Origin: Eledone cirrhosa
Lineage: Eukaryota
Direction of reading: 5' to 3'
NCBI GenBank assembly: GCA_964016885.1
Contig: OZ024757.1
Span: 26,288,001 to 26,352,000 of the forward strand
DNA: 64,000 nt
The notes below the pieces were generated by a model that worked only from the letters and a program-made list of their open reading frames with translations, was not told the DNA's origin and made no database searches. The stretch's first letter is position 1. Each line of letters opens with the position of its first letter. A program made the translations under genes and the position numbers. Positions 13,810-14,003 of this stretch are shown in pieces.

Positions 13810-13814
<5 letters not shown>

Positions 13815-14003
13815 AACCAGTAAGACCCCGACAGCTGAGCTCAAGCCGTTTCGACGGCTAATTCTGTCCAGAATTAGCCGTCGAAACGGCTTGAGCTCAG
13901 CTGTCGGGGTCTTACTGGTTCCTATTACCCACTCTACTACTCTAAGTATTGAGTACTTTGGTGCGTTATGGTCCACCTGGTTCCTTACCACATTTCCTTC
14001 GTT
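13810..14003 (+). mobile_element. Penelope-like terminal element with a 116-bp perfect palindrome and half-hammerhead
   Basis: 57-bp arms 13810-13866 and 13869-13925; GAAAcggc-ttgagctca-gctGTC; flanked by (TA)n; relatives at 14115, 29692, 58479 and 62185. Confidence 0.75.

Follow-up and report, generated by a model that had tools for sequence, protein, structure and literature searches.

The mirrored sequence at 13810-14003 belongs to an abundant family of short repeats whose 3' ends are fixed at two positions, with (TA)n after each. Five loci of this family lie in the window, the whole 64,000-nt stretch of DNA, likely from an octopus, analysed here. On balance, we favour a reading in which the repeat is the 3'-terminal 60-140 nt of a Penelope-like element (PLE), likely of the Hydra clade and likely moved in trans, inserted into (TA)n, and in which twin priming, not a fold at a ribozyme stem, produced the mirror. 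Twin priming is preferred because nine head-to-head junctions in public reads are asymmetric and mostly devoid of microhomology. The two fixed 3' ends had gone unmentioned in the preliminary description of this DNA.

Copies in the window and in public reads

The perfect 57-bp mirror first described at 13810 was confirmed. Its arms, 13810-13866 and 13869-13925, are 100% complementary around a centre of 2 nt, and the outer 3 bp can be assigned equally well to the (TA)n flank. The left arm stops outward at the equivalent of 13925 and gives way to a 390-bp TA array, leaving the tail of the right arm unmirrored. That the mirror had replaced the 5' half of the element was not confirmed, an intact copy being absent among the copies found. 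The features of the locus and its relatives are the following.

13423-13812 (no strand): (TA)n-type microsatellite, left flank and presumed target; 390 bp, 96% A+T
13810-13866 (minus): inverted short arm without tail, its outward end exactly the short 3' end of the family; from the mirror and the read-defined short end
13866-13869 (no strand): head-to-head junction; 13866 is the common 5' limit of the family (5 of 9 read junctions)
13866-14003 (plus): tailed arm of the mirrored copy, a 138-nt element
13875-13882 (plus): presumed 3' strand of helix II, its partner strand present in no copy seen
13883-13909 (plus): predicted 3' half of a type I hammerhead, with GAAA, a helix III of 5-6 bp, a palindromic GAGCTC loop, a GUC site (C13905) and a G-run as helix I strand; from sequence and read variants
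13925 (plus): short 3' end of the family, followed by (AT)n in reads; probable first start of reverse transcription
13926-14002 (plus): optional tail, about 77 nt long and terminating in (TA)n, in window copies and reads; its end is the probable second start of reverse transcription
13931-13954 (plus): bulged tail hairpin (4 bp, 4 bp, 6-nt loop, 2-nt bulge), resembling by eye the tails of Hydra-clade PLEs
14003-14026 (no strand): (TA)n right flank, read from the sequence
14115-14158 (plus): decayed solo copy running into TA repeats near the short 3' end; 30 nt (14115-14144) at 93% identity
29693 to about 29812 (plus): tailed solo copy, 5'-truncated at GAAA; 94-95% identical
58479 to about 58616 (plus): tailed solo copy starting at the equivalent of 13866, with (TA)n on both sides; 93.5% identical
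62170-62303 (no strand): old mirrored copy with an inverted arm reaching about the short end, a palindromic centre at 62234-62239 and a tailed arm with an internal deletion; about 80% identical over 62186-62294

The five loci (13810, 14115, 29693, 58479 and 62185) measure 44-190 bp, and none has coding sequence; the third starts one base to the right of the coordinate first given, 29692. Four arms carry the tail, and the short end, at about the equivalent of 13925, terminates the inverted arms at 13810 and 62185 as well as the solo copy at 14115. All seven outer 3' ends in the window run into TA repeats (left and right at 13810 and at 62185, and once each at 14115, 29693 and 58479), in microsatellite-rich animal DNA where tandem-repeat masking covers 32469 of the 64000 bases. 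As first reported, the copy at 58479 starts at the mirror centre, its first base corresponding to 13866 and standing directly after (TA)n. The copy at 62185 had been presented as an analogous mirror with a different loop: the mirror is there, with 19-nt arms that are 89% complementary, and these arms overlap and leave no loop. Its centre lies about 2 nt upstream of the equivalent of 13866; its left arm lacks GAAA, and its right arm lacks about 67 nt.

Among the 21 sequencing runs listed, 14 match part of the stretch, in 10 studies, and none of the listed matching runs is an RNA run; the runs that match best may derive from the source of the window itself. Reads or contigs of four of the 21 (X1, X19, X4 and X6) were aligned to the single arm 13866-14003; X1 and X19 bear the same species label and come from different studies. 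In X1, 15508 of 16.3 million contigs matched; in X19, 21973 of 12.5 million reads did, and X4 and X6 contributed 41 and 4 contigs, respectively. The short end is followed directly by (AT)n in 3444 of the 21973 reads of X19, 74 of the 15508 contigs of X1 and 3 of the 41 of X4, and the depth of X19 falls at 13925 from about 15300 to 12150. A second terminus, the long end, is found at about 14002, and variants of it occur at 13992 (1373 reads) and 14000 (433 reads); the family shows clear subfamilies in the reads. In the tail hairpin, the commonest listed variants fall in the loop and the bulge (13941-13943, 13950) and two rarer ones in the stem (13932, 13951); the whole hairpin is the best local structure in only one of three window copies, that at 58479.

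The window also holds repeats of other kinds. A fold-back family of about 90 bp with T- or C-rich centres occurs at 8842-8931, 15438-15527 and 29831-29919, two of the three copies lying in TA repeats. A 444-bp palindromic MITE-like element at 59168-59611 has arms of 85% identity and leaves fragments at 18501 and 54553. A family of SINEs with tRNA heads and (CAT)n ends is represented at 11717-12037, 15085-15412, 16242-16624 and 53476-53794, with two heads at the Rfam tRNA score. On the minus strand, 19867-21489 encodes a LINE-type reverse transcriptase broken into two frames, of which 20698-21489 has three named matches to Octopus bimaculoides at 75-84% identity, the top match included, which makes an octopus the likely host. 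A plus-strand frame at 10152-10637 encodes three C2H2 zinc fingers and may correspond to the C-terminal part of a LINE protein. Finally, a 61-bp unit forms a tandem array of about 98% identity at 718-2734, inside a dispersed repeat also found at 19563-20050.

A hammerhead-like block at the 3' end of a probable Penelope-like element

The preliminary description had recognised in these copies the 3' half of a hammerhead ribozyme, and a hammerhead-like 3' half is supported: GAAA, helix III and GUC are in place in the arm at 13866 and in the copies at 58479 and 29693, where the cleavage site follows the NUH rule. The block is decayed in the copies at 14115, where helix III and GUC are affected, and at 62185. 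In the listed read variants, helix III pairing is kept by wobble, the loop-closing pair excepted. The presumed helix II strand at 13875-13882 can pair alternatively with 13886-13891 and bury GAAA, at a predicted -8.0 kcal/mol versus -5.5 to -7.7 for helix III (-5.5 in the 13866 copy).

The catalytic core CUGANGA is missing from all five loci, as had been claimed, and none of the 23 CTGANGA sites of the window lies in a copy or just upstream of one. A search for the intact motif that had been put forward as a check (cccc-CTGANGA-gac) found no match in the window at one mismatch or fewer and a single unrelated one at two. No hammerhead figures among the best 150 of the 409 Rfam matches listed for the window; at the gathering score the window gives two tRNA-like matches and no hammerhead, and 58470-58625 gives one chance match. 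Pattern scans for intact relatives returned none in the metagenome collection and none in viral contigs. A looser pattern hit six metagenome and three genome loci, which were dismissed as chance, all nine being GC-rich, devoid of CTGANGA within 60 nt upstream and alike only in the pattern itself. The window and the metagenome, viral and genome pattern scans likewise yielded no autonomous partner, no frame for a reverse transcriptase or GIY-YIG domain attributable to one, and no copy bearing CUGANGA. Two other arrangements were rejected: a permuted (type II) hammerhead, the core and the helix II partner being absent downstream by inspection, and an HDV-like ribozyme setting the 5' end, for which no P1 helix was evident by inspection and nothing came from Rfam.

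Because the CUGANGA core is missing, the window copies are not ribozymes. The GAAA-helix III-GUC block would be a hammerhead remnant, inactive here, and its ribozyme identity stays putative since no intact copy was found and the reads were viewed from 13866 onward. Splitting a hammerhead at such a point permits cleavage in trans in principle. No core strand able to act as the enzyme was found in the searches above, and we regard it as quite improbable that an intact partner cuts the halves in trans. The distance from 13866 to GAAA is 17 nt; the hammerhead of Hydra-1_Amil, as tabulated in the supplement of PMC8557442, has a 9-nt loop II and an 8-nt strand before GAAA. By this analogy, the 5' limit at 13866 may coincide with the start of loop II; it may mark the end of the transcript, a stop of the polymerase or a boundary inherited from a founder.

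Complete minimal hammerhead-like motifs do occur elsewhere in the window, at 3587-3625, 12390-12430 and 41793-41830, none of them at the Rfam gathering score. Those at 3591 and 12394 are related copies, and that at 41796 has a helix II of 5 bp. An inverted pair of 224 bp (2778-3001 and 3768-3991, 99.6% identity) flanks the motif at 3591.

The excerpts of earlier work considered here describe PLEs in which one copy is inverted and truncated at its 5' end and a tail is present on one side (PMC8557442; PMC3846280), and report that EN+ PLEs insert into microsatellites and carry a hammerhead close to their 3' end (PMC8557442; PMC3846280; PMC8969392). Two structural features of EN+ PLEs are found in the present family: two fixed 3' ends with an optional tail, and a head-to-head, inverted, 5'-truncated arm with the tail on one arm only (13810, 62185 and nine read junctions). 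No direct pLTR, or partial tandem, exists among the five window loci. In a scan of 148 frames of the window, RVT_1 was detected in two (20698-21489 and 19867-20694), neither in a copy, and GIY-YIG in none. By analogy, the repeat is likely a PLE 3' end, likely of the Hydra clade, the clade assignment being a lead drawn from non-coding ends. The retrotransposition origin that had been proposed for the family is supported.

It is very unlikely that the repeat is neither PLE nor ribozyme, and instead a SINE-like or other short element carrying GAAA, a hairpin and GUC by chance. Such a reading gains from the missing Rfam match, from folding of the whole element no better than shuffles (z 0.69) and from flanks that are microsatellite-rich everywhere in the window. 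Among 20000 dinucleotide shuffles of the 138-nt element, 276 contain GAAA with a 6-bp helix closed by UH when G-U pairs are allowed and 65 do so with Watson-Crick pairs only, and the half-motif appears in 0.3-3.9% of shuffles according to stringency. Two fixed 3' ends, a tail-less inverted arm, (TA)n on both sides and a tail hairpin of this kind are not features of SINEs; together, with the likeness of the hairpin to Hydra tails, they point to a PLE.

Formation of the inverted arms

Among the joints listed from the four runs, nine are head-to-head with no letters between the arms. The first arm starts at 13866 in five of them and otherwise at 13868, 13871, 13875 and 13878; the second arm starts at 13903, 13919 (three junctions), 13922, 13929, 13936, 13947 and 13962, with a median of 13922. 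Six of the nine second arms fall within 11 nt of 13925 (P 0.003 versus uniform); for distinct positions the count is four of seven (P 0.03, or 0.085 at a 15-nt window), and a subfamily indel lies at 13919, where three of the junctions fall. All nine are asymmetric, and seven have zero microhomology. The set leaves out a tail-to-tail joint (13925-14003), a skip (13895-13932) and two rows with letters between the arms; loose ends before 13919 were set aside as the subfamily indel. Which arm of a junction is tailed is deduced, since the far ends of the arms fall outside the data, and only the four second arms starting past 13925 must be tailed. The tail-to-tail joint (21 reads, 2 starts) may reflect tandem mirror units or a nested insertion.

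These junctions retain one half of the earlier idea that the inverted termini are defined by structure. The 5' breakpoints are indeed non-random, with all nine at 13866-13878 and five exactly at 13866; the asymmetry of the listed junctions speaks against the other half, the snap-back itself. The 5' limit near 13866 may partly reflect the start of the reference arm. In the reduced-representation library X19, 7144 molecules end at 13872, likely at the restriction site of the library (AATT), and near-symmetric mirrors are for this reason probably under-detected.

Excerpts of PMC11167929 report that a PLE protein, once purified, can nick AT-rich DNA on both strands and extend each of them, that its reverse transcription starts at two sites bounding the tail, and that the PLE hammerhead is dispensable for insertion in vitro. 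In the mechanism that we propose, a GIY-YIG/reverse transcriptase protein would nick both strands of (TA)n. The first nick would prime cDNA at the short end (13925), copied as far as the 5' limit; the second would prime at the tail end (about 14002), synthesis usually stopping near the first primer. The two cDNAs would then be joined head-to-head, mostly without microhomology, and the mirror at 13810 would be the case in which both had reached the 5' limit. The CUGANGA half would lie upstream of that limit, leaving an inactive hammerhead remnant in the copies. A narrower version is offered tentatively, as possible rather than probable: the family would be a very abundant, non-autonomous PLE of octopus, about 140 nt long, from which the catalytic half of the hammerhead has been lost; its 5' limit would be a hard one, set where loop II starts, and its junctions would record twin priming from two fixed reverse-transcription starts on one RNA.

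The strongest competing view keeps the same PLE-type element and makes the inverted arm by self-priming of folded-back cDNA or of an antisense template, possibly through hammerhead helix II as the preliminary description had it. We judge it unlikely, though with several points to its credit. Self-priming in general is not a new idea, having been proposed for PLEs in 2013 from palindromic junctions (excerpts of PMC3846280). The centres of two mirrors, 13810 and 62185, lie about 2 nt apart; the 17-nt spacing of 13866 from GAAA parallels that of the loop II start in Hydra-1_Amil (supplement of PMC8557442); and symmetric products are the class worst detected in the reads. The perfect arms at 13810, moreover, share three minority alleles (at most 18%, 35% and 19% in X19), which fits one template or one subfamily. 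These alleles do not separate twin priming from self-priming. Snap-back, however, does not predict nine asymmetric junctions of nine, seven of them without microhomology, and fold-back alone leaves unexplained why the inverted arm stops at a fixed family end. The mirror centres, with a 2-nt loop or none, are unlike a natural loop II.

As stated, folding at ribozyme stem II is unsupported: at 13810 it calls for a helix of 14 bp closed by 2 nt, and at 62185 for a hairpin lacking a loop, versus 7-8 bp for helix II of PLEs (excerpts of PMC4209133). The link to stem II is also circular, because any mirror forms a hairpin. A second head-to-head mirror in the window, at 15633-16042, has one arm of 119 nt (94%) and one of 58 nt (97%) around a 5-nt centre. 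It carries hammerhead-like CTGATGA...GAAA on both arms, with a SINE-like end inserted in the left one, and is likely another PLE family, unrelated to that at 13810. Its centre lies 80 nt upstream of the intact core, which counts against a pivot at the ribozyme.

Less probable still is a founder effect, whereby one or a few truncated master copies acquired the 5' limit and the mirror a single time and passed them on, the asymmetric junctions being later deletions across unstable palindromes. The identical first base of the copies at 58479 and 13866, the clear subfamilies and the deletion beside the centre at 62185 are in line with it. Second arms at 13929-13962, however, cannot be derived from a mirror of the 13810 type, in which the arm bearing 13866 is tailed and the other stops at 13925. 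The alleles shared by the arms at 13810 also differ from those of other copies, and the centre at 62185 is a different one. A sequencing or assembly fold-back artefact at 13810, to which the 100% identity of the arms and the absence of the 13866/13869 joint from the junctions listed in four runs might point, is hardly credible given that the arm stops at the short end before a 390-bp TA array with the tail unmirrored, and given the aged mirrors at 62185 (89%) and 15633-16042 (94-97%).

Comparison with known elements

PLE architecture being already known, the mirror in itself is no surprise. The interest lies elsewhere: the origin of the inverted arms and tails of PLEs was called undefined by Craig et al. 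2021 (in the parts of PMC8557442 considered), and the PLE literature consulted in excerpts contains no test of the 2013 self-priming proposal. Five copies in 64 kb and 15508 contigs in one run offer many junctions for deciding how these structures are made. If true, twin priming would account for the tail and the inverted arms of PLEs by a single mechanism. The family would add a likely Hydra-type non-autonomous member to octopus repeat annotation, for which excerpts of PMC13282606 list 30 recently active Penelope families in Octopus vulgaris. If transcribed, the mirror would form a perfect double-stranded RNA (predicted at -114.8 kcal/mol), a possible substrate for editing or small RNAs. No literature on this repeat family or on PLE twin priming was found, in a search mostly outside subscription papers; the O. 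vulgaris repeat library may already annotate the family.

With EN+ PLEs, as described in excerpts of PMC3846280 and PMC8557442, the copies share the head-to-head, inverted, 5'-truncated arm, the palindrome at the junction, the tail on one arm, the microsatellite target and the lack of a discernible target duplication. Among the Hydra-clade entries in the supplement of PMC8557442, Penelope-13_HM is annotated as having a truncated copy in inverted orientation. In contrast to the EN+ elements, the copies here are only 44-190 bp long, non-coding and cut at a common 5' limit, and their tail measures about 77 nt versus the 30-40 bp reported in these excerpts.

Within the Hydra clade, the supplement of PMC8557442 gives a (TA)n target in 26 of 27 rows. 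The window copies share this insertion preference, which is common also to Naiad and Neptune and is therefore not specific. Hydra-clade elements in the same source carry a hammerhead close to the 3' end, whereas only its 3' half is present in the window copies. A bulged hairpin like that at 13931-13954 was seen by eye in three of six Hydra consensi (Hydra-2_Amil, Hydra-2_Ajap and, imperfectly, Hydra-1_Crog) and not in the three others, the octopus one included. The listed octopus Hydra family, Hydra-1_Obim, has a different hammerhead sequence, and helix III of the present repeat (5-6 bp, with a loop of 7-9 nt) is longer than in the Hydra table of that supplement, where a 10-nt motif of the repeat has no match.

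Naiad_Ovul has a (TA)n target and is flagged as half-core in the supplement of PMC8557442; by eye, its 3' region contains GTCGAAAC together with a palindromic hexamer and a G-run, spaced much as in the present repeat. The octopus Naiads differ in having CTGATGA downstream, where the repeat has none, and cephalopod Naiads are described as long inactive. In the 3' ends of Naiad_Ovul and Naiad_Obim, compared by eye as given in the same supplement, GAAA precedes CTGATGA, and a five-base segment of a long helix II loop could pair just before CTGATGA, which suggests a permuted hammerhead-like fold in these two elements.

In LINE-1 twin priming, cDNA synthesis is primed from each of the two target strands, and joining of the products leaves an inversion close to the second primer. 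In the family described here, both priming sites appear to be fixed on the RNA, and the overlap of the two products can reach a full mirror. The hammerheads of PLEs are of type I, with a palindromic loop 3 and a helix II of 7-8 bp, and are mostly dispersed, with pairs on opposite strands (excerpts of PMC4209133). This type I layout, the palindromic loop 3, dispersed truncated copies and opposite-strand pairs are held in common by the present repeat, PLE minimal hammerheads and the non-LTR retrozymes (excerpts of PMC4209133 and of bioRxiv 10.64898/2026.07.22.740005). The window copies are nevertheless not non-LTR retrozymes, since they have neither CUGANGA nor a complete hammerhead and form no tandem arrays in the window.
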